Shown: positions 39,260 to 63,386, counted from the stretch's first letter. The stretch: 64,000 bases of DNA from Anaerolineae bacterium (GCA_040766655.1 JAXGQB010000006.1:149562-213561), one strand, 5' to 3'. A program made the numbers and translations. The notes: generated by a model from the letters alone, not told the origin.

Positions 39260-40447
39260 CTATCCTGCGACGTTCACGCCGATCAGGGCGCCGACGCCGA
39301 AGGTAATCGCGGCCGCGGCCAGGCCGAACGCGACCTGGCGCAGCCCGGAGTAGAGTGCGTTGCGGCCCGTCATCAGGGTGATCGCTGCACCGACCACAAA
39401 GAGGCCGATCGTGCTGGCGACGGCACTGGCCACGATGCCGGTGGTCCCGGACCAGAAGAGGTAGGGGAACACGGGGATGATCGCGCCGAGCGCGAAGAGC
39501 ACGAACGAAGTGATGGCCGCGGTCCATGCCGAGCCGCCCAGCTCGGCCGGATCGATGTTGAGCTCCTCGCGCGCGAGAGTGTCGAGCGCGGTGGTCTCGT
39601 CCGAGAGCAGGCGTTCGGCCATCTGCCGGGCCGAGTCAGCGGGCACGCCCTTGGCCTGATAGATCAGCGCCAGCTCCGCCTTCTCCTCCTCGGGCATCTC
39701 GGCCAATTCCTCGCGTTCGATGTCGATCTGGTGCTGGTACAGCTCGCGCGAGCTCTGGACTGACAGCCACTCGCCCAGCGCCATGGAGAGCGCGCCGGAC
39801 AGCAGCCCGGCGAACCCGGTGAGCAGGATGGTTCGGTTGCCCACCCCCGCGCCGGCCACGCCCATGACGAGGCTGAAGACGGACACCAGGCCGTCGTTGG
39901 CGCCCAGCACGCCGGCGCGCAGCGCGTTCCCGCCGGCCCCGCGGTGGCGTCCCTCGAACCGGGCCACTGCGCTGCCCTCCAGGCCCGCCGTGTTCCGGGA
40001 GAGTTGGCGGAAGATGCGTGCGTGGGAGCGCTCGTGCCGCGGCAGGCCGGCCGCCTCCGCGTCGGGCTGGCCGTCATACTCGCCCCCGGCCTGTTGCTCG
40101 ATGCCTGCGATCGTCGGCAGGACGAAGCCTGCGCCGAAGCGGGCCGCGAGGCTGCGCAGGATGCGGGTGCGCCAGGAGAGCCGGAAGGGAGGCACAGTCG
40201 CGCCCGCGTCGCGCAGCTTGTCCTCCCAGAAGGCCACGTGTTGGCGCTCCGATTCGGCCAGCCGGCGGTAGACCGCGGCCAGGTCTGCGTTGGGCTCGGT
40301 CTCGGCCAGCCGTTCGTAGAGCAGGGTCGTGTTGCGCTCCGCCGCGAGGTTGCTGAGGTAACGCCGGACATCGTGCGAGGTGGCCGGCGTCTTGGCCGAT
40401 GCCGGCGCCTTTCCCGGCTGGGGTTGGCTGTTCGTTGGGTCGCTCAT
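39260..40447 (-). CDS. Membrane-bound ferritin-like / VIT1-CCC1 family iron transporter (MbfA-like)
   Basis: The N-terminal ferritin/rubrerythrin-like ERNTTLLYERLAE...ESERQHVAFWEDKL is fused to the VIT domain LRAGVLGANDGLVSVFSLVMGVAGA. Start was placed at ATG (MSDP), 9 nt after GAAGG. Confidence 0.85.
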   Translation of the reverse strand: MSDPTNSQPQPGKAPASAKTPATSHDVRRYLSNLAAERNTTLLYERLAETEPNADLAAVYRRLAESERQHVAFWEDKLRDAGATVPPFRLSWRTRILRSLAARFGAGFVLPTIAGIEQQAGGEYDGQPDAEAAGLPRHERSHARIFRQLSRNTAGLEGSAVARFEGRHRGAGGNALRAGVLGANDGLVSVFSLVMGVAGAGVGNRTILLTGFAGLLSGALSMALGEWLSVQSSRELYQHQIDIEREELAEMPEEEKAELALIYQAKGVPADSARQMAERLLSDETTALDTLAREELNIDPAELGGSAWTAAITSFVLFALGAIIPVFPYLFWSGTTGIVASAVASTIGLFVVGAAITLMTGRNALYSGLRQVAFGLAAAAITFGVGALIGVNVAG

Positions 40448-40863
40448 GATGTTCACCTTCTTTGCTGCGCGCCATTATCGCGCCGCGCGCGGAGAGGGTG
40501 AAATGGGCGCGTGTGCGGGCGCGAGCAGGTCAGCCCCTCCACTTACGTTCCCGCCATGCCTATGAGGCTATCAAAACTCGGGCTGTCATTTGCCAGCTGC
40601 GATCGCGCTGCAGCAGCGGTCGTTCGCTGCTGAATGCCCTTTGCCATCACCATTGACTCTGTGCTACACTCCGCACAACATAAACGCCCCGGGCTGCTGG
40701 TGCGACCGGGGCACGGCCCCATCAGCGCAGACGAGGCACTGGCAGGTGAACGTTGACAGGTTGGGCCGTCCGCGGCGTGTCTTGATGCGGGCGGCTCATC
40801 GCGTTCGGTGCTTCGCCGCAAAGCAACGGACGCCTCGTCCCTGCCGGGCGAAGGTAGGCGGAA

Positions 40864-42006
40864 ATGATCGATCCCCAGAGCCACACAACCCTGAAGCAGG
40901 CCATTGCCGAGCAGTTGGCCACTGACCGGGCGGTTCTCGACCGTCTGCGGTTGGAGATAAGGCCACTGCGCGAGCAGGTGCGACGCATCCAGCCGCGGGT
41001 GACCACCTCCATATCTCTCGTGGGCACTGATGGTGGCAACAACCACCTGCAGTTCGATCCCTTCCTGGTGCAGATCATCCGCGTGGTGGATTCCAGCAAC
41101 AACGAGTACTGCCTGGAAGCCGTGACGCCGACCACCAGTGTCACGGCCTTGAGCGCCAGGCAGTTCGCCGGCCGGGGAGGCAAGCCCACCGCGCTCGGCA
41201 AGATGATGGCATACCTGGGTGTGAGCAGCCTCCCTCAGCTTAGCCACATGATCCGCACCAACGAGACCGACCGGCCCGTAAGTCCGAGTTGGGTGCAGGT
41301 ATACCGGGAGTTGGTGGAGTGGGCGATCCTCTTCAGCATCGTGCGCGAGAAGGATTTTGGCACCGATACGCTGATCGTCTTTGACGGGCTTCTCCGTAGC
41401 AAGGTTTTCGCCGGTGACCTTTTCGGCAAGTACCTCAAGGGACTGGAAGAAGGTATCCATGCGCATCGTCGAAACCACCGCAAGCTCTACCTGGCTGGGG
41501 TTGCCAAGCATAGTCAGGTTCTGGCGCGCTATCGCCTGGCGATGAGTTTGGAGGGCATCCTGACCGGCACCTATCCCGCCTACGTCGAAGTTCCGCGCGA
41601 TCTGGAGGAGAAGGCGTACGTGTGGAGCGAATACGCGCGCGGGGATGACCGGGCGATCGAAGGAGCGGAAATCAATCGTTTTGTCGGCGGCAAGATGTTC
41701 TTCGTGAAGTTCGGCAACGGCGCGCGAGATCCTATCTGGCCGGTGGATCTGTACTATCCGCAGCGCACGGAGGCGCCGACCATCCTGGGCAGCCTGCTAG
41801 CGGACGCCATCAACGGTTTTCCTACACCGTTCTATCCTCTTTGTTTGCAGCGCGCACATGAGAACGCCGCTATGGTCGATTTCGATTTCGACATCTTACA
41901 AGACAGTGTCTACGACGCGATTCGTTCGATTCTGGGCACTGAAGGGTCTGCTGTGGATGTATTCAGGTTGCAGGACGCCGACCCTGCTGCGCGTCGTTAT
42001 TCTTAG
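40864..42006 (+). CDS. nurA: NurA-domain 5'-3' nuclease
   Basis: ISLVGTDGGNN supplies the catalytic Asp context. LIVFDGLL, YLAGVAKHSQV and FYPLCLQRAHENA match the conserved NurA blocks as I recall them. Confidence 0.75.
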   Translation: MIDPQSHTTLKQAIAEQLATDRAVLDRLRLEIRPLREQVRRIQPRVTTSISLVGTDGGNNHLQFDPFLVQIIRVVDSSNNEYCLEAVTPTTSVTALSARQFAGRGGKPTALGKMMAYLGVSSLPQLSHMIRTNETDRPVSPSWVQVYRELVEWAILFSIVREKDFGTDTLIVFDGLLRSKVFAGDLFGKYLKGLEEGIHAHRRNHRKLYLAGVAKHSQVLARYRLAMSLEGILTGTYPAYVEVPRDLEEKAYVWSEYARGDDRAIEGAEINRFVGGKMFFVKFGNGARDPIWPVDLYYPQRTEAPTILGSLLADAINGFPTPFYPLCLQRAHENAAMVDFDFDILQDSVYDAIRSILGTEGSAVDVFRLQDADPAARRYS

Positions 42007-42017
42007 GAGTCTATGCC

Positions 42018-44141
42018 ATGCCGCACATTGACCTCTTCAGGAGGGAACAGATCATTGGCGTCTTCCGCGGCTTCCGCGAAGGCGGCCTGGAGTTCCATGC
42101 TGAGCTGGTGTTGCCGTATAGAAGCGACTTCCAGAACATCCCGATGCATGGGCAGTTCCTCCTGGTGCAGCTGGAGACCCCCGACGAGGCAGTATTGGGT
42201 CGCATCGCTGCGTTCTCCTCGGAAGGCAAACTCTCATCGGGTGTTGGCGAGGATTTCAACATCCGGGCCGTGCGGGAGGACCGGCCGATACCGGAAGACC
42301 TGCGGGAGCAGTATCTGAAGTACAGGGTCAACATTCGGGTACTGGGCGTGCTGCGCAACAAGGCTCATGGTGGCTTGACGTTTGTGCCTTCGCAACGCCG
42401 CCTACCGCACGTGGGCAGCCCGGTTGCTTTCCCGTCGCCTGAGGTTCTGGAAGAGATTGCCGGACATAACCTCCCCGGCGCGCCGATCGGCTATTTCGCC
42501 CTGGGTGAGTACATTTACACGCGCGGCGGCCAGCAGATTGAGATCACGGACTGGATGCAATGTAAAGAGCCCGAAGTCCTCATCAAGTTCCCGGTTGATA
42601 ACCTGGTCTCACGTCGCTCCTTCGTTTTTGCGCGCGCGGGCTTCGGCAAGTCCAATCTCAACAAGCTTCTGTTCAGTAAGCTGTACGAGACTACACCCAC
42701 GGTAACCAAACGCGGTGATAGACGGGTGCCCGTCGGCACCGTGATCTTCGATCCGGATGGCGAGTACTTCTGGCCGGATGACCGGGGCAGGCCGGGCCTG
42801 TGCGATGTACCTGCGCTGCGGGACAAGCTGGTCGTCTTCACCTCGCGGCGCAGCAGCAGCCCGTTCTATCAGTCCTTTGTCGCCGGCGGCATCAAGCTGG
42901 ACATCCGTCGGATGAAACCATCCGACGTGATCTCGATCGCGCTATCTCCCGAACGCCAGGAGCAACAGAACGTACGCAAGCTGCGTGGTCTGGACGTGAC
43001 CCGGTGGGTCCGGTTGGTCAACCTGATCGACGAACACGGCAACCAGGCACCGGTTGAAGAGATAAACGAACTGCTCGGTCTGGAGCAGCGGCAAGAGGTG
43101 GAGGCTTACGCCGCGCGTGCCAACATGACCGCCATCGTCAGGATGCTGCATGATAAGGGCAGCCAGTTGATGGACCTGCTGATTCATTCACTGTCAGAGG
43201 GCAAGCTTTGTGTGGTTGATGTCTCCCAGATGCGCGGCGGGCAGGCCATGATGCTGTCGGGTTTGATCCTGCGACGCATCTTCGACCGCAACCAGGAGGA
43301 GTTCACCGCGGCTGAGCCGAAGACCATCCCCACCATTGCTGTGATCGAGGAAGCCCAGTCGGTCCTGAACGAGCGCGCCCTGTCGGCCGAGCCGTTCATC
43401 ACCTGGGTCAAGGAGGGGCGCAAGTATGACCTGGGCGCCCTGCTGATCACCCAGCAGCCTGGCAGCATTCCGGTGGAAATACTTAGCCAGGGCGACAACT
43501 GGTTCATCTTCCATCTGCTATCGTCGGCAGATCTCTTAACGCTACAGCGCGCCAACGCCCACTTCAGTGAAGACTTGTTGAGCGTCCTGCTCAACGAGCC
43601 GATCGCAGGCCAGGGTGTGTTCTGGAGTTCCGGAGGCGGCAAGCCCTATCCGGTCCCGATCCGCGTGCTATCGTTCGAGCGGCTGTTCAAACCCCTCGAT
43701 CCGGACTACGATCAACCCGCTGCCGACACCTATGCTGCGAGACTGCGCGATGAGTTCGAGGCGAAGCTCGTCGGCGCTGAACTAATGGTGCGACCTGCAG
43801 CCACTGATATCGAGGCCGAGCAGGATGGCAGCGGGGCTGATGTCCAAGGTCAGCCTGATGAGAGGGACGTCCTGCAGGTATATAAGGATCGCGCTATTCA
43901 GGCGCTCCAGCGCGACGAGAACATGATGGGACGCGTGACCAGCAGCGAGGGCGTGGCTTGGGGCACGATGAAGAGGTTCTTCGAGGATCAACTGCCGGTC
44001 GAGATGGACGACCGCGGGCAGATTGCCTATGGGCTGGTGCGGGAGGCGATGGATCGCATCTTCGGCAGACAGAACGAAGCCTGGCACTCTTACAAGCACC
44101 CGACCCGCAACACGGCATACGTCAAGACGGGCAAGGGGTAG
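42018..44141 (+). CDS. herA: HerA/FtsK-superfamily hexameric ATPase (DUF87) with extra ~150-aa C-terminal domain
   Basis: Starts 11 nt after the nurA stop, behind AGGAG. The N-terminal barrel-like segment is GQFLLVQLETPDEAVLGRI. Walker A is ARAGFGKSNL, Walker B KLCVVDVSQM, and the sensor block ALLITQQPGSIP. Confidence 0.85.
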   Translation: MPHIDLFRREQIIGVFRGFREGGLEFHAELVLPYRSDFQNIPMHGQFLLVQLETPDEAVLGRIAAFSSEGKLSSGVGEDFNIRAVREDRPIPEDLREQYLKYRVNIRVLGVLRNKAHGGLTFVPSQRRLPHVGSPVAFPSPEVLEEIAGHNLPGAPIGYFALGEYIYTRGGQQIEITDWMQCKEPEVLIKFPVDNLVSRRSFVFARAGFGKSNLNKLLFSKLYETTPTVTKRGDRRVPVGTVIFDPDGEYFWPDDRGRPGLCDVPALRDKLVVFTSRRSSSPFYQSFVAGGIKLDIRRMKPSDVISIALSPERQEQQNVRKLRGLDVTRWVRLVNLIDEHGNQAPVEEINELLGLEQRQEVEAYAARANMTAIVRMLHDKGSQLMDLLIHSLSEGKLCVVDVSQMRGGQAMMLSGLILRRIFDRNQEEFTAAEPKTIPTIAVIEEAQSVLNERALSAEPFITWVKEGRKYDLGALLITQQPGSIPVEILSQGDNWFIFHLLSSADLLTLQRANAHFSEDLLSVLLNEPIAGQGVFWSSGGGKPYPVPIRVLSFERLFKPLDPDYDQPAADTYAARLRDEFEAKLVGAELMVRPAATDIEAEQDGSGADVQGQPDERDVLQVYKDRAIQALQRDENMMGRVTSSEGVAWGTMKRFFEDQLPVEMDDRGQIAYGLVREAMDRIFGRQNEAWHSYKHPTRNTAYVKTGKG

Positions 44142-44149
44142 GCTGGGAG

Positions 44150-45301
44150 ATGCTGTACGGCAACAACGACCGGGCGCTGAACGGAATCTGCCCGTACTTC
44201 ACGATGTTCCCGGTGGACTTCCCCCGCTCGCTGTTGGCTGCCCGGGGCGAGCGGGATGGCTGGGTGTTTGATCCGTTCTGCGGACGCGGCACAACCAATT
44301 TTGCTGCTCGGCTGTCGAACCTGCCATCGATTGGCATGGATAGCAGCCCGGTCGCCGTTGCCATCGCGCAAGCCAAACTGGCCAACACATCGCCACGCGA
44401 GATCTTGGGGGCTGCGGTTGAGTTGCTTGACGAGGTTGATCAGCCTGTCGACGTGCCTGAAGGCGAGTTCTGGGAGTGGGCATTCTCGCCAGACGTGCTT
44501 GTCGTGGTCTGCCGGCTGAGAGAGGGTCTGATGCGCGACTGCCGCAGTGATGCCCGCAAGGCTCTGCGAGCGATCCTGATGGGCGCCCTGCATGGTCCCA
44601 CGCCAAAGTACAAAGCCTCATACTTCTCCAACCAGTCGCCCCGCACCTATGCGCCCAAGCCGGGGTATGCAGTGCGCTTCTGGAAGGTGCGCGATCTGAA
44701 GCCACGGTCGGTGGATGTGCTGGCCATCGTTCACGAGCGGTCACAACGTTACTTCGGTGCCAAACTCCCTCGGGGCAAGGGCTGGATTCTCGCGGGCGAT
44801 AGCCGGGACCCCGCTGCCGTAGAGGCGGCGGTGCAGGGTCGTGCGTTGCGATGGGTGATTACGTCTCCGCCCTACTATGGCTTACGGACGTACATCCCCG
44901 ATCAGTGGTTGCGCCAATGGTTCGTGGGTGGACCCGCTGAGGTCGATTACTCATCCGATGGACAAATCCGCCACGCAAGTCCGGGTATATTCAGCCAGGA
45001 GCTAAGAACCGTGTGGCGAAACGTGGCTCGGGTATGCCGCGCTGATGCCGAACTCGTGATTCGTTTCGGCGGGATCCGCGATCGCAAGGCCGAGCCGCTG
45101 CCGCTGCTGTTGGAGTCCTTAGTGGGATCGGGTTGGGAGGTGCGGAGCATCACATCGGCTGGCTCCGCATCGCAGGGGCGACGGCAGGCCGAGAGTTTTG
45201 CCCGCACCAAGCAACCACCCTTCGAAGAACACGATGTCCTGGCGGTTCTGGCGGACGAATCAGTTTCGAGTTGGCAGAGCCAAGCGGAGGGAATGCACTG
45301 A
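44150..45301 (+). CDS. N4/N6 DNA methyltransferase with permuted motif order (motif I N-terminal, SPPY motif IV ~200 aa downstream)
   Basis: ATG lies 8 nt after the herA stop. VFDPFCGRGTT (residues ~39-49, the AdoMet FxGxG block) and WVITSPPYYG (residues ~236-244, catalytic (S/D)PPY) are present. The track ORF start at 43958 overlaps herA and was rejected. Confidence 0.8.
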   Translation: MLYGNNDRALNGICPYFTMFPVDFPRSLLAARGERDGWVFDPFCGRGTTNFAARLSNLPSIGMDSSPVAVAIAQAKLANTSPREILGAAVELLDEVDQPVDVPEGEFWEWAFSPDVLVVVCRLREGLMRDCRSDARKALRAILMGALHGPTPKYKASYFSNQSPRTYAPKPGYAVRFWKVRDLKPRSVDVLAIVHERSQRYFGAKLPRGKGWILAGDSRDPAAVEAAVQGRALRWVITSPPYYGLRTYIPDQWLRQWFVGGPAEVDYSSDGQIRHASPGIFSQELRTVWRNVARVCRADAELVIRFGGIRDRKAEPLPLLLESLVGSGWEVRSITSAGSASQGRRQAESFARTKQPPFEEHDVLAVLADESVSSWQSQAEGMH

Positions 45302-45406
45302 TCGAGGCGAGGGTCGCGTTGGACGAAGCCGAACGCACGACCCCCGCTTTACGATATCCCTACTGGCGCGTAGGCCGACGGAGCAGGGTCCAGGAGTGGT
45401 GTACTG

Positions 45407-45571
45407 ATGGATGACGAGGTCGGGTCTGACTGGCAGACGCAGGCGCCGGCGGCCGGCTTCGAACACCTCGGTGAGCACCGCGAGCCGTATTGGGATATCT
45501 TCCCCAGCCTCAAGCCCGAGCTGAGAGCACGCATCCCGATGACGTTCTCCATGGTCGCGCGGCGACCCTGA
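45407..45571 (+). CDS. Possible 54-aa small protein downstream of the methyltransferase
   Basis: ATG at 45407 lies 11 nt after CAGGAG. Host-like high GC3. Below the ORF-track size cutoff. No motif. Confidence 0.35.
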   Translation: MDDEVGSDWQTQAPAAGFEHLGEHREPYWDIFPSLKPELRARIPMTFSMVARRP

Positions 45572-45601
45572 TTGACCATCCCCAATTGTAGTCCGCGCTC
45601 C

Positions 45602-45645
45602 TTACAGATACCTAATACTATTAGTATATTCTAACACCATTAGGT
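45602..45645 (+). promoter_or_regulatory. AT-rich promoter/operator upstream of the TetR gene
   Basis: TTACAG (45602-07), 17 nt, then TATATT (45625-30). A perfect 13-nt palindrome CTAATACTATTAG (45612-24) sits in the spacer. An outer inverted repeat ACCTAAT (45610-16)/ATTAGGT (45639-45) flanks it. Confidence 0.55.
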
Positions 45646-45664
45646 AACTGGAGGAGCGTACGGC

Positions 45665-52575: not shown

Positions 52576-52664
52576 GTAACCGGACAAGAAAAACACCTCG
52601 CAGTCGATAAGAGACCACGAGGTGTCATTGGGTGATTGTGGCGAACCACAACAAAGGTATCAGG

Positions 52665-52736
52665 TGGCGACGCTGAGACTCGAACTCAGGACCCAGCGAT
52701 TATGAGCCGCTTGCTCTGCCTCTGAGCTACGTCGCC
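52665..52736 (-). tRNA. tRNA with CAU anticodon (elongator Met or Ile2; not initiator-like)
   Basis: Folded by hand. Acceptor GGCGACG/CGUCGCC; D-arm GCUC-AGAGGCA-GAGC; anticodon arm AGCGG-CUCAUAA-UCGCU; variable loop GGGUC; T-arm CUGAG-UUCGAGU-CUCAG; discriminator A. G1-C72 is paired and the GGG/CCC anticodon-stem signature is absent, which argues against tRNA-fMet. Confidence 0.85.
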
Positions 52737-53233
52737 TTCTTCTACCACAACATCTAGGGGTCTATCCAATAACCAACACTACAGATTGTGGTCGGCTGTC
52801 CGATATCCAAGACGCCCGTTTGGACGAATCGCTGGGTCATCTCGGCTGACAAACCCCCTGGCCCGCAGTTGCGCGTGGGCCGGCGGTAGTCACGCGCCCC
52901 CTGGCCTCGACGCCTCAACCGGCGAGCCACCAAGCCAGCGGTGTTACCAGCACCGCTGACCTTTTCAATTTGATTATACCCAGAAATCAACGCTCCCGCA
53001 AAACCCTTATCACTGATGCGTGAACCAGGACCCAGTAGGGCCCCATGTGGTAGCGTTCACCTGTGGCAGTGGTCCCGAACACATTCTCGTCGGAAGCATC
53101 ATCGATCATTCGCCCAGCAGCCTCAGCAGCACCGGTCCGAGCTTCAACCTTTCGGCGGACATCGAAGCACAGACGACCCATCACCGTAGCGGATTGCCTG
53201 ACCCAAACCCCTCAGCCCAGTCACCTGTAATCC

Positions 53234-53364
53234 GAGCAATTGCTCGCCAGCTTGGCAAGACGCAAGATCAGCCAACTAGACAAACTTGTCAAGTTGGCAA
53301 ACTATTGTCAAATGTCAGAACATACACATTTAGACTTGACAGCATCGTCCCCCTCTGATATGAT
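53234..53364 (+). promoter_or_regulatory. Operator array plus near-consensus sigma-70 promoter upstream of the RHH gene
   Basis: TTGACA (53336-41), 17 nt, then TATGAT (53359-64). Four TTG(G/T)CAA boxes lie upstream at 53252, 53286, 53294 and 53305. There is also a perfect 12-nt palindrome GAGCAATTGCTC (53234-45). Confidence 0.65.
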
Positions 53365-53424
53365 GTGCTCAATGGCTGCTGAATGAGGGGCTACGGCGCA
53401 GCCAAGAGGAAGTCTAAGGAGGTC

Positions 53425-53715
53425 ATGATGTCTCGAAACATACGGTTGGTCGTTCGACTGGCCAATGACGAGGAATATGCGCTGAGGCGCTTCGCACAGG
53501 AGTCCAAATTGCCACTTGCGACGTTGGTTCGGGCGCTTCTGCTCCGCGAGGCGGAGCGTCATAGTGCCGAACGGGCTGGTGCCGGTCTCGGTGGGCTCGC
53601 GGAGGATGCTGTTCGATCAGGGGACATTTCGGTGTCAGATCACCATCCAATCGCGACGACGAAGCGTTCTCAGCACCACTCTGGCAGTGGGATGGTCGAG
53701 CCTTGGTCTGCGTAA
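53425..53715 (+). CDS. Ribbon-helix-helix (CopG/Arc/MetJ-type) DNA-binding protein
   Basis: ATG lies after TAAGGAGG. IRLVVRLANDEEYALRRFAQESKLPLATLVRALLL is a beta-strand plus two helices, typical of RHH. Confidence 0.7.
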   Translation: MMSRNIRLVVRLANDEEYALRRFAQESKLPLATLVRALLLREAERHSAERAGAGLGGLAEDAVRSGDISVSDHHPIATTKRSQHHSGSGMVEPWSA

Positions 53716-53757
53716 GGCGGTCCGCCTTTGTGACCTTGGGCGTTCAGGGGTAGTGCC

Positions 53758-55173
53758 ATGGCCGGCAGCAAGGCCCTGTACGATCCAGACGCGGAAGAAC
53801 GCCTACTCGCGACTGCGCTTACCGATTTCGCGAATTTCGCGCGCGATGTGCAGCCGGAAGACTTCCACAACAAACTCCATGGGCAAATCTGGGCTGTAGG
53901 GCAAGAACTGATTGACCTGGGAGACTATCCTCAGGGAGTGAACGTGCCCACGGCCGCTAGTATCGGCGATGCACTAGAGCGCCGTGGTGTCGACGTTGGT
54001 TTGCTGATAGCACATCTGCAGGCGCTCGACGTCAACCCTGTCGATGCATCAGTCTTTGCTCGCCAAGTGAGGGACCTCGCGGCGCGGCGGCGGGCCGATA
54101 ATCGGCTTCAAGCAGCACTCCGAGCGACCCATTACTCGAACGGCACATGGCGTGATGAGATCGTGCGCGCCATAGACGGGCTGTCGCAGGACCTGACGCA
54201 GGCGAGTCCACAGGCAGACACCCCGGCCAGCCACATCTCGCTGTTGACGGCAGCGGAGGCCCTTCAACCCAGACCACCGCGCAAGTGGTTGGTCGAGAAG
54301 CTATTCCTGCCTGGCAGCGTCAACGTGATGTTCGCTCCCCCTGGCACGGGCAAAACGTATTGTTTTGCTGACCTGAGTGTTTGTGTAGCCCTCGGCTCAC
54401 CCTGGCTTGGATTGGCGACACAGCAGGGTGCGGTATTGATCATCGACGAGGAATCGGGGACGCGACGCATCCTTGACCGGTTTGCAGAAGCGCTGCGTGG
54501 TCATCTAGCCGACGCATCGACGCCAGTCTACATCGCGTCCCTCGTCGGATTCAACTTCCGTGAAAATGAGTCATTGGCGACCCTGGATGAACTCATCCGG
54601 AAAGTTGGCGCTCGCCTCGTCGTCATTGATGCATTGGCCGATGTAATGTTGGGCGGCGATGAGAACGCTGTCAAAGACACCCAACCCGTCTTTCACGGTT
54701 TGCGCACCGTCGCAGAGGCAACCGGCGCAGCGGTGCTCGTGGTACACCATAGCAACCGGGGGGGCGCTTATCGGGGGTCGTCGGCCATTCCTGGCGCTGT
54801 CGACGTGATGCTCGAACTCACCCGGCGTAACGATTCGCAACTGGTTGACATTGCCACCGTGAAGAATCGCGACGGCGAACCCATCACCTTGTCGGCCATG
54901 ATGCGCTGGAGCGATGGGATATTCGACCTGATACCTGCACCGACCGTCGGGCCACGCGAGACTTTCAGCAAAGCCGAGCGATATGTGCTGCGGTACCTGG
55001 AAGAACACGGTGCAGACACCGTCAAGAACATCATGGACCACGCGGACACATGTGCTTCCACCACGGCGCGACAAGCCATCTATCTGCTGGCCGAGAAGAA
55101 CAAGGTGTGGCGTTGTGATGGCGGCAGCGGCACACAATCAGCAACCTACTGTCTCGTTGGTGATGCCAAATGA
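53758..55173 (+). CDS. Replicative-helicase-like protein: DnaB N-terminal-like domain + RepA/AAA_25 RecA-fold ATPase + C-terminal wHTH
   Basis: The N-terminus DPDAEERLLATALTD......VQPEDFHNKLHGQIW is DnaB-N-like. Walker A is MFAPPGTGKTY, Walker B AVLIIDEE / LVVIDALAD. LVVHHSNRGG is typical of RepA-like ATPases. Confidence 0.8.
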   Translation: MAGSKALYDPDAEERLLATALTDFANFARDVQPEDFHNKLHGQIWAVGQELIDLGDYPQGVNVPTAASIGDALERRGVDVGLLIAHLQALDVNPVDASVFARQVRDLAARRRADNRLQAALRATHYSNGTWRDEIVRAIDGLSQDLTQASPQADTPASHISLLTAAEALQPRPPRKWLVEKLFLPGSVNVMFAPPGTGKTYCFADLSVCVALGSPWLGLATQQGAVLIIDEESGTRRILDRFAEALRGHLADASTPVYIASLVGFNFRENESLATLDELIRKVGARLVVIDALADVMLGGDENAVKDTQPVFHGLRTVAEATGAAVLVVHHSNRGGAYRGSSAIPGAVDVMLELTRRNDSQLVDIATVKNRDGEPITLSAMMRWSDGIFDLIPAPTVGPRETFSKAERYVLRYLEEHGADTVKNIMDHADTCASTTARQAIYLLAEKNKVWRCDGGSGTQSATYCLVGDAK

Positions 55174-55176
55174 GCA

Positions 55177-55266
55177 CTTGTAGTCTTGTAGCACTTGTCA
55201 TGAAACTTGTAGCGATTACAAGTCAGCTTGTAGTACTTGTAATCCCCCCCTTAAGGGGGATTACAA
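55177..55266. repeat. Iteron-like array of CTTGTA(G) heptamers plus a 12-bp-stem hairpin; candidate replication origin
   Basis: CTTGTA(G) occurs at 55177, 55185, 55194 (variant CTTGTC), 55206, 55227 and 55236. One inverted copy (TACAAG) lies at 55217. The hairpin is ttgtaatccccc/gggggattacaa (55238-55266). Confidence 0.7.
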
Positions 55267-55328
55267 CTTCAAGCACGACAACGATCACAAACTGGATGCG
55301 CCATAGGTTCTTTGTTGCGGAGGGTGTC

Positions 55329-55661
55329 ATGGGTTGTGTTGGTCCTTTGGACTGTGCGCTCGAATGGCTGAATGAAGTGGATGAAAATTATGGATCAACG
55401 TCAAATGTGGGCCGGACCGATGAATTGCAGAATCCCTCTTGCGGGACTGACACGGTGGCAGAGAATCCACCACTCATCCTAATCTGGTGGCAGGACCGTG
55501 GGCACGCCGATGAATCCGATTACCACAAGGCGACCTTCGCTTCGCTTGAGGAGGCTGAGCTTGCACTCCAGATGGTTGAGCAGGACATAACGTGCAACGG
55601 GATCATCCCCTGTTGGCGGGAAGGCAGGGCGGACCCGCGGTGGGATTTCCTGCCATTTTAG
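55329..55661 (+). CDS. Hypothetical protein (110 aa)
   Basis: ATG at 55329 lies 5 nt after GGAGGG. The upstream part of track ORF 55170 is translation of the iteron array and was rejected. Confidence 0.5.
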   Translation: MGCVGPLDCALEWLNEVDENYGSTSNVGRTDELQNPSCGTDTVAENPPLILIWWQDRGHADESDYHKATFASLEEAELALQMVEQDITCNGIIPCWREGRADPRWDFLPF

Positions 55662-55694
55662 GCGGGCTGTGCCACAGTTTCGGCGGAGGAGGCA

Positions 55695-55943
55695 ATGACC
55701 ATCAGTCAGCGAACGCAGCGTGTTGTGGTGCTGTCTACCTCTTTGCCCTGCTGCGCGTTCGCCGCCTGGGGCTACTGCGATGAACCGGCAACCGAGGCTC
55801 TGGCGGAACTGCGCGTATTGGCGACAGGGCACGAGTGGATAATGAAGCCCTACTGCCCGAAGCATATGCGCGCGCATGAACCCAAGCGCAAACGCGCGCG
55901 GGCCGCGCGCACACCCGCGGCCCGCGGCACGGCGGGCGGCTGA
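55695..55943 (+). CDS. Small Cys-rich hypothetical protein with basic tail
   Basis: GGAGGAGG precedes the ATG. The tail is KRKRARAAR. Confidence 0.5.
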   Translation: MTISQRTQRVVVLSTSLPCCAFAAWGYCDEPATEALAELRVLATGHEWIMKPYCPKHMRAHEPKRKRARAARTPAARGTAGG

Positions 55944-56097
55944 TCATGCGCAAAGGTGCCGCCGGCTGTCCCTGCTGGACGAGGCGCGGGCTGGCCCTGA
56001 TTGAATGCCCCGTAGGGCTTCGTATCGGAGCACCGGAAACAGCGTTGGGCCAGGGCGCAATCGCTGACGCCCTACCTCACCCTGCCGAGGAATCGCG

Positions 56098-56628
56098 ATG
56101 ACAACTACACGATGCGCCTGGTCCGCCCCCGTCTCCAACTCCGAGGCGTATAGGCGGGCCGGCGGCCGGCGGCGCTACAATGCGATGCGCCGAGCCGCGG
56201 CATTGGTTCGGTCCCTGGAGGCCTTGGCCCTGCACCGTGCTGGTTGCTCCAAGGCCGATATCGCGAGCCGGCTGCTAGTTTCCAGATCAACGGTCCAGTG
56301 CTACTTTCGCCGCTGGACCGGCCCCCGCCAGCGCCTATGCCCGGTCTGCCGGCGGGTGTGGAGCCACGGGCCGGAACCCCTCGCCGCCTCACCTGTGGCA
56401 TGCGATCTGGATCACGGCCAACCGGACGGAGGACCGGCCGCCCGTATTGAGCTCGTGGTGCAACTGCTCCAGGCAGGCCACACTCAGGCCGAGGTCGCTC
56501 GGCGGTTGGGCGTATCGCCGGCGACGACCTGCCGCGACGTTCGCAGGTTATGGAACGAACTGATCGAGACGGGTTGCTGCCCGGTCTGTGGCGCAGCTAT
56601 TGGCGGTGCGGCTGAGCGCGCACGGTGA
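56098..56628 (+). CDS. Protein with two helix-turn-helix modules and CxxC pairs
   Basis: The HTH units are GCSKADIASRLLVSRSTVQCYFRRW and GHTQAEVARRLGVSPATTCRDVRRL. CPVC occurs twice. Confidence 0.6.
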   Translation: MTTTRCAWSAPVSNSEAYRRAGGRRRYNAMRRAAALVRSLEALALHRAGCSKADIASRLLVSRSTVQCYFRRWTGPRQRLCPVCRRVWSHGPEPLAASPVACDLDHGQPDGGPAARIELVVQLLQAGHTQAEVARRLGVSPATTCRDVRRLWNELIETGCCPVCGAAIGGAAERAR

Positions 56629-56787
56629 AACGGGGTGCGGACTTATTCCGCAGTGACCCCATGGGCTCCACTGCTGCACACTGAGCGCGGGAATGAAAAT
56701 GCGTACCTTGACGAGGCGAAGCACGAATCGCCGCTGATTTCCGGAAATCGTCCACGGTGTTTCGCGGCCTCCCACAAACTCGGTGAC

Positions 56788-56816
56788 TTGGCGAACTTAT
56801 CACGGTGTGATAGATT
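56788..56816 (+). promoter_or_regulatory. Candidate promoter with palindromic operator in the spacer
   Basis: TTGGCG (56788-93), 17 nt, then TAGATT (56811-16). The palindrome TATCACGGTGTGATA (56798-56812) overlaps the -10 box. Confidence 0.4.
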
Positions 56817-56923
56817 ACGCCTAGACGCAATCCTCAGTGTTCAGGGCCATGATGGATGGTCCGGCACACATCGGCGAGATCAAGCGCCTACACCGACGCA
56901 TCATCAACAGCATTTGATAGGAG

Positions 56924-58006
56924 ATGAGCACCGTGAGGCAGATATTCCTCTGTGTCCTGATCGTCACCCTGGCTGTGGGTTGTGCGGGCACGCCGACTGC
57001 CCAACCAGCAAATACGCCCGACGGTGCTGCCACGGAGACCGCCATCGCCCGCAACATCTATGCGACGCTGACGGCTGCCCCGACCGCAGCCCCTACCATG
57101 ACGGCTACGACAGCGCCTACGGCAACACAGGTGCCACCAAGGCCGGCTCCCACGGCTTCAGCTACAATGCCGCCGACCCCGACCCCCGAACCCCGGCCGA
57201 CTGACACGCCGACGCCAGAACCTTCACCTACATCGGTTGGTCCGGTAGCTGTGGTGCAGTCGGCATCCATTAACGTGCGGGCCGGCCCTGGCACCGGGCA
57301 CGCGGCCATCACCGCTGGCAGAAAGGGCGATCTACTCCCGGTAACTGGTCGCAACGCTGATGGCTCGTGGCTGGAGATCACTCTGCCCGATGGACGCAGC
57401 GGCTGGATCGCGGCGACTTTGGTCCAACTCAACGTTTCCACCGGCGAGGTGGCAGTGGCGAAGACTATTCCAACCCCACCGGTCGCCCCAACCTCTGCCC
57501 CCGGCGCGATTGCGAAACCCGCGGCCGGCCGGCGCGATCTTGAGGTGACCTTCCTCAACCCGCACTACGATTGCCAACAGACCGAATGGCAGTACACTGG
57601 CGACGACAACGAACACCATCCCCTATGGGGCTATCGGTCGTTTCAGGTTGACATGTACATCAAGAACAATTCCCAGACATCGATTGAGCCACCCTGGAGG
57701 CCGAAGCGCTGGATTATTACGGACGGCCAAAAAGATGTGATGAACGGCCTACGATGGCAATGGGTGAGCAGAAGCAGTGGGTTTTATCCGCAGCCGGCGA
57801 TCCAGCCAGGGCAAAGCGCGGGGTGGACCTTCCTCGCGTTTCCGATAGATCGCAATCAATGGGTCAAGGCGGTCGAGTTCGAGTGGAACGGACAGGTCTA
57901 CCGCCAAGACTTTGACTTGGGGCCATACGGTAACAACCACAACTACAGAGACTGCGGCGACCCTGCGCCGCACACCGACCGCCCTACACCGACGCCTCGG
58001 CCATAG
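56924..58006 (+). CDS. Lipoprotein with bacterial SH3 domain and C-terminal domain of unknown function
   Basis: Lipobox is LAVGCAG, followed by a PT-rich linker. The SH3_3-like segment is ASINVRAGPGTGHAAITAGRKGDLLPVTGRNADGSWLEITLPDGRSGWIA. Confidence 0.7.
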   Translation: MSTVRQIFLCVLIVTLAVGCAGTPTAQPANTPDGAATETAIARNIYATLTAAPTAAPTMTATTAPTATQVPPRPAPTASATMPPTPTPEPRPTDTPTPEPSPTSVGPVAVVQSASINVRAGPGTGHAAITAGRKGDLLPVTGRNADGSWLEITLPDGRSGWIAATLVQLNVSTGEVAVAKTIPTPPVAPTSAPGAIAKPAAGRRDLEVTFLNPHYDCQQTEWQYTGDDNEHHPLWGYRSFQVDMYIKNNSQTSIEPPWRPKRWIITDGQKDVMNGLRWQWVSRSSGFYPQPAIQPGQSAGWTFLAFPIDRNQWVKAVEFEWNGQVYRQDFDLGPYGNNHNYRDCGDPAPHTDRPTPTPRP

Positions 58007-58023
58007 TAGTCAAAGGTACAAAG

Positions 58024-59112
58024 ATGCAAACAGTTTTCAGTCACGTTGTCCAGAAGCGGCTCTCCCAGGAGAACGAGAATGTTGCGACCGAGGCGCTTTC
58101 TTTCGTCCTACAATCGCACGAGCTCGCTCACAACGGAATGATGAAGCTCCTGCGCGGAATCGACCCGCAGATGCCCCGTCTCTGGTTTCGCACCCAGCAG
58201 GCTGAGGGTAAGGGTCGCCCCGACATGCTGGGATGCGATGATGCCGGTGAGCCGCATCTCTTCATCGAGAACAAGTTTTGGGCCGGTTTGACAGAGAACC
58301 AGCCCGTGTCTTACCTTCGCAGACTGGTTGAGTGCCCTATGGCCACCATTCTGCTGGTCATCGGTCCTGAGGCTCGCCAGGAGATGCTGTGGCGCGAATT
58401 CCGCCGCAGACTCGCGGATGATGATATCTCGATCTCAGCAGACTCGATGAGCGGCATCTTTCGCGTCGCGACGACCAGCATCGGCCCGAAGCTCGTGCTG
58501 ACGTCCTGGCGGGTGCTGCTCGATGCCCTGGAGACCGAAGCCACTGATGACAAGGCTGCCAGGAGTGATCTTCTTCAGTTGCAGGCGCTGTGTGCAGCAG
58601 CGGACATCGAAGCGTTTCTCCCGATGTCCGCACAGGAAGCGACGGACCAACGCACGCCTGCCCTGATCCTGCAGTTGAGCAGCGTTGTGCAGGCTGTGGT
58701 TGACCGTGCTGTCAGCCAGGGCATTCTGAATCTCCGGGGAACCGCTCCTCAGGCTTCGGCGGAACGAATCGGTCGCTATGCCTACTTCGGGGCTGAGCGA
58801 CGGGCCGGCCTGTGGTTCGGAATCCACTTCGTGCTTTGGAAGACGCATGGCGTGACACCGCTTTGGATGGTCTTCTCGCCAAGTGAGTTCGGGCGTGCGC
58901 CTGAAGTACAGGCCATCCTCGAACCCTGGGCAGCACAACGGGGAGTCTTTGTGACCCGTTACGGGGACGGTCACTTCGTGGTTGCTCTCGACATCGAGTA
59001 CGGCGAGGACAAAGCTGGAGTCGTCGCAGGTATCGTGGCTCGGCTGGGGGAGATGGCGGTCCGGCTGGCCGTGTTGAAGCCTGGCCCCCAGGGAGAGATA
59101 AACAACGGGTGA
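58024..59112 (+). CDS. PD-(D/E)xK-nuclease-like protein (N-terminal domain) with unknown C-terminal domain
   Basis: ENVATEAL...GRPDMLGCDDAGEPHLFIENKFWA fits the E...PD...(D/E)xK arrangement. Confidence 0.55.
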   Translation: MQTVFSHVVQKRLSQENENVATEALSFVLQSHELAHNGMMKLLRGIDPQMPRLWFRTQQAEGKGRPDMLGCDDAGEPHLFIENKFWAGLTENQPVSYLRRLVECPMATILLVIGPEARQEMLWREFRRRLADDDISISADSMSGIFRVATTSIGPKLVLTSWRVLLDALETEATDDKAARSDLLQLQALCAAADIEAFLPMSAQEATDQRTPALILQLSSVVQAVVDRAVSQGILNLRGTAPQASAERIGRYAYFGAERRAGLWFGIHFVLWKTHGVTPLWMVFSPSEFGRAPEVQAILEPWAAQRGVFVTRYGDGHFVVALDIEYGEDKAGVVAGIVARLGEMAVRLAVLKPGPQGEINNG

Positions 59113-59626
59113 TTCGGCTGCATTCTCCGAAGTCCTGCGCGAGTTCATCACCAGACTGGCAAAGTAGTTGGGCAAGTGTGCTGTTGAGCGGCACGGTGAC
59201 GCATTCCCTTCTCAGCCAGCCTTGGTTCACAAGACAACATACCCTTGCCGGATTGGCCAACGTCGATGGCAACGAGATTTCTGGATCAGGGTGAACAACA
59301 TGTCGAAAATCCTCTTCGGTCTGCTGGAACTGATTCTGCGTCTGTTCGGCTGGAAGCGCCTGGACGTGAAGGACGTCGCGCGCGATCTGGGGATCGCGCG
59401 ACCTCCCACGAAGACCCCGCCAGGGGACCCAGACTAGCGCGTAACCCGCGGTCGTGATGGCGCGTCGCCGGCGCTGCCGCTGAGGTTGGTAATGGCTGCG
59501 CTGGTGGCCGGAGGCGTGACAACCGCCGATCCGCGCAGGGAGTTGGCGAGGTCACGTGTTTGCCCTCTGGGTCAGGGGTATTCCTGGTCAGAGAATTCGC
59601 GAATCGATTGGAGGGAGGACAGCATC

Positions 59627-61165
59627 ATGAAGAACATGGCCCTAGTCCTCGTTGTCGTGTTGATGGTCGCGGGTTGTCGCGGTGCGCCAGCACCAGACAC
59701 GCAGGCGACGGTGGACCGAGCGGTGCAAGCGACACTGACCGCCCGTGCCCCAGACAGCGTGCCTGCGCCGGCCACGGCACCTGCGCCCACCAATACGCCT
59801 GCGCCCTCTGTGGAACCGACAATTGCGCCAACGGCCACAGAACCCCCCGCTTCGCTGACCGATTCATCGAAGGAGGAGGCGCTTGACACTTACAAGTTGC
59901 TGGTCGCCATCCAGGCCGAGGTCAATCTGCTGGATGAGACGGCGCGCCGCGTTGCATCTGGTGAACTGGAGGGCACGGACAGTTTCTCGTCCGTGATGGC
60001 TGTAGCTCTGATAATTCAGGCCGTCGATGAGGGAATCGCCGAATACGCTCCCCCCGCCATAGTGAAGCCCTCCTGGGAGGCCGCGGTATCTATCCATCAG
60101 ACGACCCGCTCTCTAGTCACTAGCTGGTTCAACCAGGAAATCAACGCAGATGCAGTGATCTCAGAAATCGCGTCCCCACTGGCCGACATCGACGCGGTGC
60201 TCTCGGATGTGGACGACCTACTGGAAACCGTCTATGCACTAGATAGGGCCGAACTGGATGGACTTCGCGATGAACTGGTTAGAGGTATGAGGGACATCCT
60301 GAATACACCGACCCCGCCTCCCGACAGCGCAAGCGGCCCTGCGGAGGTGACTAGCGACGTCAGCTACACGGAGGGCGACTACCTCTACATCATCGGCGAG
60401 GTAGAGAACACCAGCAACACCCCCATGGAGTACGTCAAGCTCGTGGCTACGCTGTATGACGACAAGGACAGCGTCGTCGGGACTGAATCGACCTACACCA
60501 TTTTGGACGTGATTCCTCCAGGGGGCAGGTCGCCGTTTGAGATGATGACCAGCGACTGGGACGGCATGACCCGCTACAAGCTCCAGGTGCAGTCCTCTGA
60601 AGGCGACCTGCCGGAAACATTGGTCAGCGTGGTCAGCCACCGGCAGCGCATCGACGGCGATTACTACCACATCGTTGGTGAGGTCAAGAACGAAGGTGGA
60701 GCGCCAGTGGAGTATGTCAAGGTCATCGCCACCTTATACGACGAAGCTGACAAGGTGGTGGGCGTGACCTATTCGTATGCCATATTGGATGCAGTGCCTG
60801 CCGCCGGCAAATCGCCTTTTGAATTGACCACGGACCGCTGGGCAGGCGCGGTTCGCTACGAGATTCAGGCCCAGGCCAGTCCAGGGGAGTTGGGGCGGCA
60901 GGGCATCTCGGTTAAGAGTCACACGTCGAGCAGCAACGGCGACTACGTGTCCATCGTAGGCGAGGTCCAGAACAGCGGCGACACTGATGCGGAGTACGTG
61001 AAGGTGGTAGTCACATTCTATGACGGTGCCGGCGCAGTCGCCGGCGTGGCATATTCGTACACGGCACTGGATACGATTCCGGCCGGCGCAACGTCTCCAT
61101 TCGAGGTTATGACGCGACAGGATTCTAGCTTCGATCACTATGAAGTTCAGGTCCAGGGGCAGTAG
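59627..61165 (+). CDS. Lipoprotein with three tandem FxLYD-type domains
   Basis: ATG at 59627 lies after GGAGGGAGGA. Lipobox is MVAGC. There are three ~95-aa repeats of GDY..I(I/V)GEV.N....(M/V/A)EYVK(L/V)(V/I)(A/V)T(L/F)YD......G.....Y..LD.(I/V)P.G..SPFE. Confidence 0.8.
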   Translation: MKNMALVLVVVLMVAGCRGAPAPDTQATVDRAVQATLTARAPDSVPAPATAPAPTNTPAPSVEPTIAPTATEPPASLTDSSKEEALDTYKLLVAIQAEVNLLDETARRVASGELEGTDSFSSVMAVALIIQAVDEGIAEYAPPAIVKPSWEAAVSIHQTTRSLVTSWFNQEINADAVISEIASPLADIDAVLSDVDDLLETVYALDRAELDGLRDELVRGMRDILNTPTPPPDSASGPAEVTSDVSYTEGDYLYIIGEVENTSNTPMEYVKLVATLYDDKDSVVGTESTYTILDVIPPGGRSPFEMMTSDWDGMTRYKLQVQSSEGDLPETLVSVVSHRQRIDGDYYHIVGEVKNEGGAPVEYVKVIATLYDEADKVVGVTYSYAILDAVPAAGKSPFELTTDRWAGAVRYEIQAQASPGELGRQGISVKSHTSSSNGDYVSIVGEVQNSGDTDAEYVKVVVTFYDGAGAVAGVAYSYTALDTIPAGATSPFEVMTRQDSSFDHYEVQVQGQ

Positions 61166-61212
61166 TCAGGTCCAATGGAAGCGCCGTTGCCCCTTCAATC
61201 ACGGGAGGAACC

Positions 61213-61437
61213 ATGCCACGAGCAACTCATTGTCTCCTGAACGGTGATACCATGAGCGTTGATCTCGCTTTGACCCTGCGCGACCAAGCCCGTTCGCGCG
61301 GGGCACCAAGACCCGATTTCCGCTGTACGCTCTGTGGGGCCGAGGTCCGCCCGCATCGTGACGGCGGCCATACGACTGCGCATTTCGAGCACCTGGCGAG
61401 CAATCCGGAGTGTCCGCTCAGCGACCCGCCGAGATGA
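61213..61437 (+). CDS. Small zinc-finger-like protein (CoiA-N-terminal-like C..C...HFEH...C pattern)
   Basis: GGGAGGA precedes the ATG. The pattern is FRCTLCGAEVRPHRDGGHTTAHFEHLASNPECP. Confidence 0.5.
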   Translation: MPRATHCLLNGDTMSVDLALTLRDQARSRGAPRPDFRCTLCGAEVRPHRDGGHTTAHFEHLASNPECPLSDPPR

Positions 61438-61795
61438 GGATACCAACCGCAGTTGCTCTCGGTGATCAACATCTAGAACGAGCCGATTCGCAACAGGCAA
61501 TGTATGCGCTCGCGGACATTGCCATCCCTATGGTGACGTGCTAAACTTCGCACAATGCCGTGTTTTTACAACCTCCATCGGCGGTCAGGATTTAGCAGGA
61601 CACCACCACTTGCCTTAAGTTGCGAGTCGCACTTCTCGTCAACCACAAGCTAACCGACGTGAAGAAGCAGCGAATGACTCGCGCAGACGAACGCTTAGGG
61701 AACTGCTTCGGCGAGGGTCGGCAGACCGAGTCATTGTTCCTGCGCTCAGATGCAGGGACTACGCGCGACCATTCGTGAGAGGGAGCAGGAAGCTG

Positions 61796-63183: not shown

Positions 63184-63386
63184 AGACTGGCTAGCTTGGT
63201 GGAAGCGACGTCGCGTGTTCTTGTCACCCGACCTTCCCATCTAGGTTCTGGCAACTGCGGAACCGGTGAAAGTGAAAGATCGTGATTGACGATAGTCCGA
63301 CTACGAGATGGGTAACACACAAACCCACGATGGCCCCCAAACCAACGTACTTCGGACACTCCACGCGCTGCTGAGGAGGTTTTACC

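Follow-up and report, generated by a model that had tools for sequence, protein, structure and literature searches.

A nuclease–motor–methyltransferase gene trio from an Anaerolineae bacterium as a candidate mobile, restriction-modification-like defence operon

Introduction

A 64,000-nucleotide stretch of DNA from an Anaerolineae bacterium (GCA_040766655.1, JAXGQB010000006.1:149562-213561), referred to below as the window, carries at positions 40,864 to 45,301 three closely packed genes, g1, g2 and g3, predicted to encode a NurA-fold nuclease, a HerA-type motor and a permuted DNA methyltransferase. The evidence leaves it an even call that this trio is one horizontally mobile operon that serves as a restriction-modification (R-M)-like defence module, namely a methylation-linked variant of the restriction logic of the TdpAB translocase-nuclease. 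The R-M mechanism itself is plausible by analogy but unproven. Three bodies of evidence are laid out below, namely the kinship of g1 and g2 with TdpB and TdpA, the recurrence and co-divergence of the trio across phyla, and its neighbourhoods; the alternatives are weighed where the evidence bears on them.

Layout of the trio

The three genes are co-directional and separated by 11 nt (g1/g2) and 8 nt (g2/g3), exactly the open reading frames (ORFs) that had been claimed in an initial annotation made from the sequence alone, and all of the peptide motifs quoted there were found in place. Each gap contains a Shine-Dalgarno-like purine run that overlaps or abuts the preceding stop codon. The trio is bracketed by non-coding spacers of 407 nt upstream (40457-40863) and 363 nt downstream (45302-45664), close to the 400 and 360 nt estimated earlier, and the interval 40457-45664 contains no other coding sequence. 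Judged solely by the two short gaps, the three genes would be co-transcribed. The features are as follows.

40864-42006, plus strand: g1, an ORF of 380 amino acids (aa), predicted NurA-fold nuclease with TdpB as the nearest relative
42018-43700, plus strand: core of g2, residues 1-561, predicted HerA/DUF87-type hexameric translocase ATPase (the whole of g2, 42018-44141, has 707 aa)
43701-44141, plus strand: C-terminal extension of g2, residues 562-707, beyond the end of the alignment with TdpA/HerA
44150-45301, plus strand: g3, 383 aa counted from an ATG within a longer TTG ORF, predicted permuted N4/N6 DNA methyltransferase
40641-40670, plus strand: candidate sigma-70-like promoter with a TG extension, from a weak consensus scan (9 of 12 matches) that is not evidence of function

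The NurA-fold nuclease

The motif blocks that had suggested a NurA-type nuclease lie at residues 53-60 (VGTDGGNN), 172-177 (VFDGLL), 212-217 (GVAKHS) and 328-335 (LQRAHENA) of g1. The protein itself has no match in Pfam (E ≤ 0.1), NCBIfam or PADLOC, and a phmmer search against the Protein Data Bank (PDB) was also empty, so that the NurA assignment stands on the fold and on the relatives and not on any direct profile match. Within a family set of 47 sequences, 26-86% identical to g1, the NurA profile PF09376 was matched by 14 homologues (best 6.2e-10), all among those at 26-52% identity. The profile of the g1 family gave a single match in the PDB, TdpB (8wet_G, E 0.003), with an alignment that spans the VFDGLL and GVAKHS blocks; the identity of g1 to TdpB is about 19-30%.

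The predicted structure points in the same direction. An AlphaFold (AF2) model obtained from 30 near-identical sequences had a predicted local distance difference test score (pLDDT) of 51 and was discarded, and a diverse alignment gave a pLDDT of 88.9 and a predicted template modelling score (pTM) of 0.86. When this model was compared with the PDB by Foldseek, TdpB came out on top (E 1.8e-11, template modelling (TM) scores 0.62/0.65), followed by NurA of S. solfataricus (3.8e-6), NurA of P. furiosus (8.7e-5 and 1.2e-4) and TM1739 of T. maritima (1e-2) (entries 2ygk, 3taz, 3tai and 1zup); the PIWI domains of Argonaute proteins rank below the NurA structures. Residues D56, E152, D174 (D/E), D295, D314 and H332 are kept in 37-46 of the 47 sequences and are candidate counterparts of the metal-binding acidic/His catalytic residues of NurA. 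On the strength of the profile, the relatives' Pfam matches, the Foldseek ranking and the conserved residues, g1 is, as modelled, a NurA-fold (RNase H-like) nuclease of the TdpB kind.

The HerA-type motor

By its sequence, g2 is a HerA/FtsK-class ATPase, as had been proposed initially. Residues 184-421 match the Pfam family DUF87 (PF01935; 6.7e-21, 75.8 bits against a cutoff of 23.2), and the best sequence match in the PDB is TdpA (E 3.3e-25), with HerA chains next. Residues 112-252 of g2 align with residues 103-230 of TdpA, and the Walker A motif GFGKSN (residues 208-213, nt 42639-42656) is identical in TdpA. The heptapeptide CVVDVSQ (residues 398-404), initially taken for the Walker B motif, aligns to a strand upstream of it; the alignment to TdpA and to HerA from S. 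solfataricus (4d2i) places the true Walker B at IAVIEEAQ (residues 440-447, nt 43335-43358) and an arginine finger in EGRKY (nt 43413-43427). The sensor-1 glutamine belongs to the TQQ of ITQQPGSIP (residues 477-485, within nt 43446-43472). Walker A, Walker B, the arginine finger and ITQQ are invariant among the homologues checked. As a member of this family, whose hallmarks include an N-terminal HAS-barrel and a hexameric ring, g2 is predicted to form a ring hexamer.

Since TdpA and HerA stop at about residue 561 of g2, the protein carries a C-terminal extension of 146 aa (562-707), in line with the additional domain of about 150 aa noticed earlier. In 55 homologues, the extension consists of a length-variable acidic/Pro-rich linker and a conserved domain of about 90 aa (nt 43863-44138), after which the stop codon follows; across the extension as a whole, conservation falls to 11-44%. 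The domain of about 90 aa has no significant match in Pfam or by a profile search of the PDB. Matches of this domain to a telomere-binding protein (borderline, E 0.006) and to Bcl-xL were rejected as borderline or spurious.

The permuted methyltransferase

The third protein matches PF01555 with 43.7 bits (cutoff 26.7) and is labelled MTase_II by PADLOC. Its motif I, DPFCGRGTT (residues 41-49, nt 44270-44296), precedes motif IV, TSPPYYG (residues 238-244, nt 44861-44881). When the profile of g3 is aligned with 2zie, a methylase of T. thermophilus, it falls into two segments whose order is exchanged: query 14-73 pairs with chain 220-279, and query 205-299 with chain 22-97. The circular permutation postulated at the outset is thereby confirmed. 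Further matches of the profile in the PDB are cytosine-N4 methyltransferases, DpnA and CcrM; no chain named TdpC is among them. Thus, by its sequence, g3 is a circularly permuted N4/N6 DNA methyltransferase of the PF01555 family. An SPPY motif favours N4-cytosine methylation, and its presence suggests this target chemistry for g3. Both DPFCGRGTT and TSPPYYG are invariant in 28 g3 sequences, so enzymatic methylation appears to be under selection. The conserved core of the protein stops near residue 366 (nt ~45246).

Distribution, synteny and co-divergence

Homologues of g1 number more than 3,280, and each of the best 120 shares 69-86% identity with it, proteins from unrelated phyla included; among 1.84 billion representative sequences, the g1 family makes up 501 clusters at 50% identity. 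A survey with one genome per species (185,579 species genomes) yielded 250 loci, the best 80 of which were examined. These 80 come from Chloroflexota, Verrucomicrobiota, Bacteroidota, alpha-, beta-, gamma- and deltaproteobacteria, Nitrospirota, Acidobacteriota, Actinomycetota, Cyanobacteriota, Planctomycetota, Abditibacteriota, Latescibacterota, Gemmatimonadota, Bacillota and Binatia, so that the trio spans about 15 phyla, mesophiles included.

Enough sequence for judging the arrangement was available for 70 loci. The order g1-g2-g3, with small gaps between the aligned segments, is found in 58 of them, and in two more the g3 family lies directly upstream of the pair, which makes it adjacent in 60 of 70; this is far beyond chance. 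The arrangement extends to divergent members: a locus with 54% g1 identity (L091) has a complete trio, and one with 44% (L086) has g3 upstream. Pairwise protein distances are correlated between the three genes, with r of 0.95 (g1-g2), 0.86 (g1-g3) and 0.85 (g2-g3), and in Mantel tests 0 of 2000 permutations reached these values. Because the order is shared across phyla and the distances are correlated, the trio is considered to be inherited and transferred as one unit. An accidental, lineage-specific adjacency, named initially as a condition that would overturn the proposal, is contradicted both by the 58 loci and by the co-divergence.

Sequenced plasmids and phages are nearly devoid of the trio. 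It was found in 0 of 72,556 plasmids; GenBank phages gave no full-length match to g2 and only two weak partial ones; and in IMG/VR the module is present in only 3 of 2.9 million contigs. Carriage by sequenced plasmids or phages was therefore rejected.

Composition and edges of the trio in the window

The composition of the trio is foreign to the surrounding window. Its GC content is 0.61, against 0.66-0.67 in neighbouring genes, and G+C at third codon positions (GC3) is 0.71-0.76 against 0.89-0.92. No convincing flanking direct or inverted repeats and no att-like repeats were found around it in the window, nor was a tRNA att site, the nearest tRNAs being 7 kb off.

A contig from another sample (L097) is identical to the window at 99.9% over 40339-45246 and diverges totally beyond this point (L097:4908). 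The breakpoint coincides with the end of the conserved g3 core, and for this reason the final ~17 codons of g3 and its stop codon in the window (45246-45301) apparently derive from flanking DNA. Position 45246 thus appears to be the right edge of the transferred segment.

Neighbourhoods of the trio

Outside the trio, the flanks show no conservation between loci. The commonest Pfam families among 110 immediate neighbours include ResIII, phage integrase, resolvase/recombinase, DNA methylases and WYL; IS66 transposase and PglZ are also met. In L006, the trio stands right after a type III Mod-Res pair, and in L059 right after a type III-like methyltransferase, where a GajB-like helicase adjoins as well. 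Type I HsdM/HsdS and a WYL regulator adjoin it in L041, and WYL is likewise present in L058 and L072. Tiamat TmtA is adjacent downstream in L065 (14337-18737) and upstream in L034, L046, L049, L053 and L068. The neighbourhood survey proposed with the initial annotation has thus shown the methylase to be syntenic across phyla and the trio to recur beside defence and mobile genes, a pattern that agrees with a horizontally mobile defence cassette and not with a housekeeping repair pair.

Several individual loci deserve description. In a Bacillota metagenome-assembled genome (MAG; L075:7029-16435, also L073), the trio is flanked by BrxHI (1500 bits) and PglZ (988 bits), so that a full NurA-HerA-methylase cassette is embedded in a BREX locus. 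Large TmtA-like proteins with a sacsin-type domain and NOV_C lie beside the pair or the trio in about eight loci (the six just named, L006 and L062), often together with a UvrD-PD-(D/E)xK helicase-nuclease; they may be a second co-travelling system or an alternative partner. In three loci (L055:3549-4295, L058:5359-6105 and L072:7073-7819), the gene right after g2 encodes a DUF3223 protein in place of the methylase. In L081-L083, whose contigs also carry UvrD, SSB and ThyX, a DUF3223 gene immediately precedes a NurA-HerA pair of 43% identity; this protein could be an alternative third component. A 52%-identical pair is cargo of a Tn7-like transposon (TnsA, TnsB, TniB, TniQ) with an AAA_15/21 ATPase (L084:418-10187) and adjoins a non-homologous Dam-type (D12) methylase, and a divergent pair directly follows a Druantia DruA-like gene (L087:6-3882). 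In a Cellvibrionaceae MAG (L061, 10001-13269), the tenth of the methylase-less loci considered below, an apparent frameshift has broken the g2 homologue into a pair of ORFs that overlap, and part of a g3-like gene is present on the other strand, 3 kb upstream; this locus looks like a decaying copy.

The survey bears directly on the proposal that the trio is a housekeeping NurA-HerA pair for double-strand break repair beside an orphan methyltransferase. NurA-HerA is an established end-resection machine of archaea and Deinococcus (PMC9960219, PMC12977600), and the trio shares with it the NurA fold, the HerA ATPase core (4d2i) and the adjacent, translationally coupled genes. The surroundings in the window are also those of ordinary metabolism (ALDH, MFS, VIT1, TetR, DinB-like and HflK/C-like genes, with the VIT1 gene divergently oriented directly upstream of the spacer). 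Unlike the canonical pair, however, the trio has no mre11/rad50 linkage, its g1 falls under the Pfam NurA threshold, and it is horizontally mobile, methylase-linked and set in defence-island contexts. A repair function fits poorly with such a patchy spread (250 matches in the 185,579 species genomes), with ~70% identity across unrelated phyla, with the foreign codon composition, the variable flanks and the defence and mobile neighbours, and with the strictness of methylase synteny and co-divergence. Raised as the alternative in the initial annotation, the housekeeping explanation is now highly improbable, the general context being that of defence islands and mobile elements.

Comparison with known systems

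The closest solved relative is TdpABC, a DNA phosphorothioation-based system of thermophiles represented by PDB entries 8wet, 8wfd and 8y1k (An et al., Nat Chem Biol 2025, as cited in PMC12914056). Both systems are compact three-gene sets of a nuclease, a ring translocase and a DNA-modifying enzyme. TdpA is the nearest solved relative of g2, with which it shares Walker A, Walker B, the arginine finger and sensor-1, and TdpB is the nearest solved relative of g1 by both profile and fold, the genes for g1 and g2 being 11 nt apart. In contrast to TdpABC, the third gene of the trio encodes a PF01555 methyltransferase dependent on S-adenosylmethionine (SAM) and not the phosphorothioation enzyme TdpC; TdpA has no counterpart of the 146-aa C-terminal extension; and the trio family is spread across mesophilic phyla and not restricted to thermophiles. 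TdpC reportedly installs the phosphorothioate, and on self DNA the sulfur is said to keep TdpA from translocating and TdpB from cutting. As the methyltransferase occupies the place of TdpC, the trio is not filed as a member of the Tdp system; by analogy, it plausibly works like TdpABC with methylation in place of sulfur.

Searches with the Tdp proteins themselves were made in a collection of 5.8 billion proteins. A 107-aa TdpB fragment found no homologue there, and a 195-aa TdpA fragment found only short or truncated proteins with uninformative neighbours. Tdp proteins in the strict sense may be very scarce; alternatively, the length of the query may bias the word index.

HerA also serves as the scaffold of the SIR2-HerA and DUF4297-HerA defence systems, which have no modification step. 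These resemble the trio in the HerA-type hexameric ATPase and in the defence-island setting, and differ from it in that the trio has a NurA-fold nuclease as the predicted effector and possesses a modification enzyme. Among the PDB matches of g2, entries 8j4u, 8wiv, 8ziq, 9c1m and 8xau bear names consistent with defence-system HerA ATPases, the specific system not being stated, and the HerA models of PADLOC cover only part of g2 (~1e-15).

With ATP-dependent R-M systems (types I and III, BREX/DISARM-style), the trio has in common the set of a methyltransferase, a motor driven by nucleoside triphosphates (NTPs) and a nuclease, as well as mobility and occurrence in defence islands. However, its motor is a HerA/FtsK-class ring and not an SF2 helicase, its nuclease is RNase H-like NurA and not PD-(D/E)xK, HNH or PLD, and it has neither a specificity subunit nor diversification in the part of g3 expected to hold a target-recognition domain. 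No restriction endonuclease (REase), HsdR, Res or type IV nuclease was detected in the three genes by PADLOC and Pfam, which bears out the earlier statement that a restriction enzyme of a known R-M type is missing from the trio.

The same order of a NurA-like gene, a gene for a hexameric HerA/FtsK ATPase and a PF01555 methylase gene is known from earlier work, which gave it another function: it occurs in the operon of the element ICEth1 from T. thermophilus HB27. This operon is co-transcribed and encodes the type IIG enzyme TthHB27I (1106 aa), NurA-like TTC1878 (377 aa), TdtA TTC1879 (568 aa) and the putative PF01555 methylase TTC1880 (410 aa), and both nurA and tdtA are needed for DNA donation in transjugation (PMC5365140). 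The two operons were compared by published description: the lengths are 377 and 380 aa for the nuclease and 410 and 383 aa for the methylase, TdtA with its 568 aa corresponds roughly to the g2 core, and in both cases the genes nearly abut and belong to a mobile element. In contrast to the window, which has neither feature, the Thermus operon is headed by the type IIG enzyme and resides in an integrative and conjugative element (ICE) with an integrase and att repeats at a tRNA; TdtA has no equivalent of the C-terminal extension of g2; and the demonstrated role there is DNA donation, and the methylase can almost be dispensed with. Literature searches brought up the ICEth1 operon but no account of a NurA-HerA-methyltransferase defence system. 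The initial belief that this architecture had not been described was thus mistaken, since ICEth1 carries the same gene set and TdpABC already pairs a NurA-fold nuclease and a HerA-like motor with DNA modification; what was not found in the literature is a description of the trio family as a defence system.

The Thermus precedent raises the possibility that the trio is a machine for DNA mobilisation or donation, in which the ring would move DNA inside the cell or export it, the nuclease would process it and the methylase would be an accessory. Besides the shared co-transcribed order and the requirement for nurA and tdtA in transjugation, this would agree with the evident mobility of the trio and with the occurrence of some divergent relatives in replication-like modules of mobile elements (SSB, ThyX, UvrD, DUF3223). 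However, neither a type IIG enzyme nor an integrase nor any further ICE gene is linked to the trio in the window and in most loci, and the flanks differ from locus to locus; the 72,556 plasmids lack the trio and GenBank phages a full-length g2; and several loci lie within genuine defence loci (BREX, type I and III R-M, Tiamat). Donation is accordingly regarded as improbable, if clearly less so than a housekeeping role.

A possible mechanism and its difficulties

If the trio is an R-M-like module, the following sequence of events can be imagined. A hexameric g2 ring of the HerA/TdpA type would encircle double-stranded DNA (dsDNA) and pump it at the expense of ATP, and g1, with its NurA/TdpB fold, would dock on the ring and degrade the DNA delivered to it. 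The host genome would be marked by g3 through methylation. By analogy with TdpAB, the motor-nuclease would load at free ends or breaks of incoming DNA and destroy it processively, and on self DNA the modification would stall or prevent translocation and cleavage, so that host DNA would be spared. The base methyl group might be read through the tethered C-terminal domain of g2, or through the methylase acting as a recognition subunit. Both the formation of a nuclease-motor complex and the role of methylation as the self mark are inferred here by analogy.

A number of observations weigh against this R-M-like scheme. TdpA reads a backbone modification directly. It is not obvious how a ring that follows the backbone could perceive a methyl group on a base. 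Between motifs I and IV of g3, the stretch in which target recognition is expected is largely invariant across the 28 sequences and not diversifying, and such conservation of a presumed target-recognition domain is unusual for R-M systems. Ten of the 70 informative loci have no adjacent g3-type methylase, and in the nine that were checked the catalytic residues of g1 and g2 are intact; hence the pair may be non-lethal without g3, or other methylases may substitute for it. Some of these loci adjoin type I methylases, DUF3223 or Tiamat, and more distant relatives pair with DruA (L087) or lie among SSB, ThyX, UvrD and DUF3223 (L081-L083). The C-terminal domain of g2 was tried as a methylase-only feature and rejected in this capacity, since methylase-less loci retain it; the domain is thus not methylase-specific. 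In Thermus, a mutant that has lost the ICEth1 methylase is viable and shows minor effects only (PMC7767461). This minor phenotype, together with the ~10 of 70 methylase-less pairs, argues against a strict toxin-like dependence on the methylase. Finally, PADLOC 2.0 does not recognise the trio as a system and gives only generic partial matches to HerA and MTase models; the profile searches recommended initially did assign DUF87 to g2 and PF01555 to g3, with g1 left unmatched.

Some of the same facts would be explained if the trio were a defence system in which methylation is not the self mark. The pair would then be triggered by infection cues or free ends, and the methylase would be a recognition or loading subunit, protect the element from other restriction systems, or act in regulation. 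Such a scheme is compatible with the existence of intact pairs without g3, with the combination of the pair with DUF3223, DruA, an AAA_15/21 ATPase or Tiamat, with the conservation of the g3 region expected to hold target recognition and the dispensable Thermus methylase, and with the use of a HerA scaffold by SIR2-HerA and DUF4297-HerA without any modification. It is at odds with the adjacency of the g3 family in 60 of 70 loci and its co-divergence with the pair, with the invariance of motifs I and IV, with the presence of a methylase from a different family beside a divergent relative (L084), and with the fact that the nearest solved relative spares self DNA by modification. Defence of this kind is judged unlikely, though it has rather more in its favour than DNA donation.

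A bolder form of the R-M-like reading may also be put forward, with more doubt than the general one. The trio family would be a widespread, unnamed R-M class in which a HerA ring and a NurA-fold nuclease processively destroy DNA that lacks methylation, self DNA is marked by a permuted N4/N6 methyltransferase that is dedicated to this task and does not diversify, and the methyl group is read by the ring motor, possibly via the ~90-aa domain. This would be unlike every known R-M type and unlike the backbone sensing of TdpAB. We hold this to be a real but tentative possibility.

A second region of unusual composition in the window

Far downstream of the trio, just past a tRNA-Met gene (52663-52736, minus strand), the GC content of the window drops to 0.54-0.62 over 52663-64000. 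Among its ORFs, one specifies an AAA_25 ATPase (53758-55173) and another a resolvase-type HTH protein (56098-56628), whereas several have no Pfam match; the region may be an element integrated at tRNA-Met.

Implications

The order NurA-HerA-methylase is already known from ICEth1. If the trio restricts unmethylated DNA, the Thermus operon would merit a second look: donation may there be a later use of a nurA-tdtA-methylase core that first served defence or DNA processing. The trio is a compact, highly conserved three-gene cassette and should be experimentally tractable in heterologous hosts; the profiles of PADLOC 2.0 miss it despite its occurrence in at least about 250 species. It also raises a mechanistic question, namely how a ring that tracks the backbone would sense a methyl group on a base. 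If the trio indeed restricts unmethylated DNA, it would bring a new motor-nuclease chemistry, a HerA ring with NurA, into methylation-based immunity, and TdpABC, instead of being a curiosity of thermophiles, would belong to a wider family of HerA-NurA systems gated by DNA modification.

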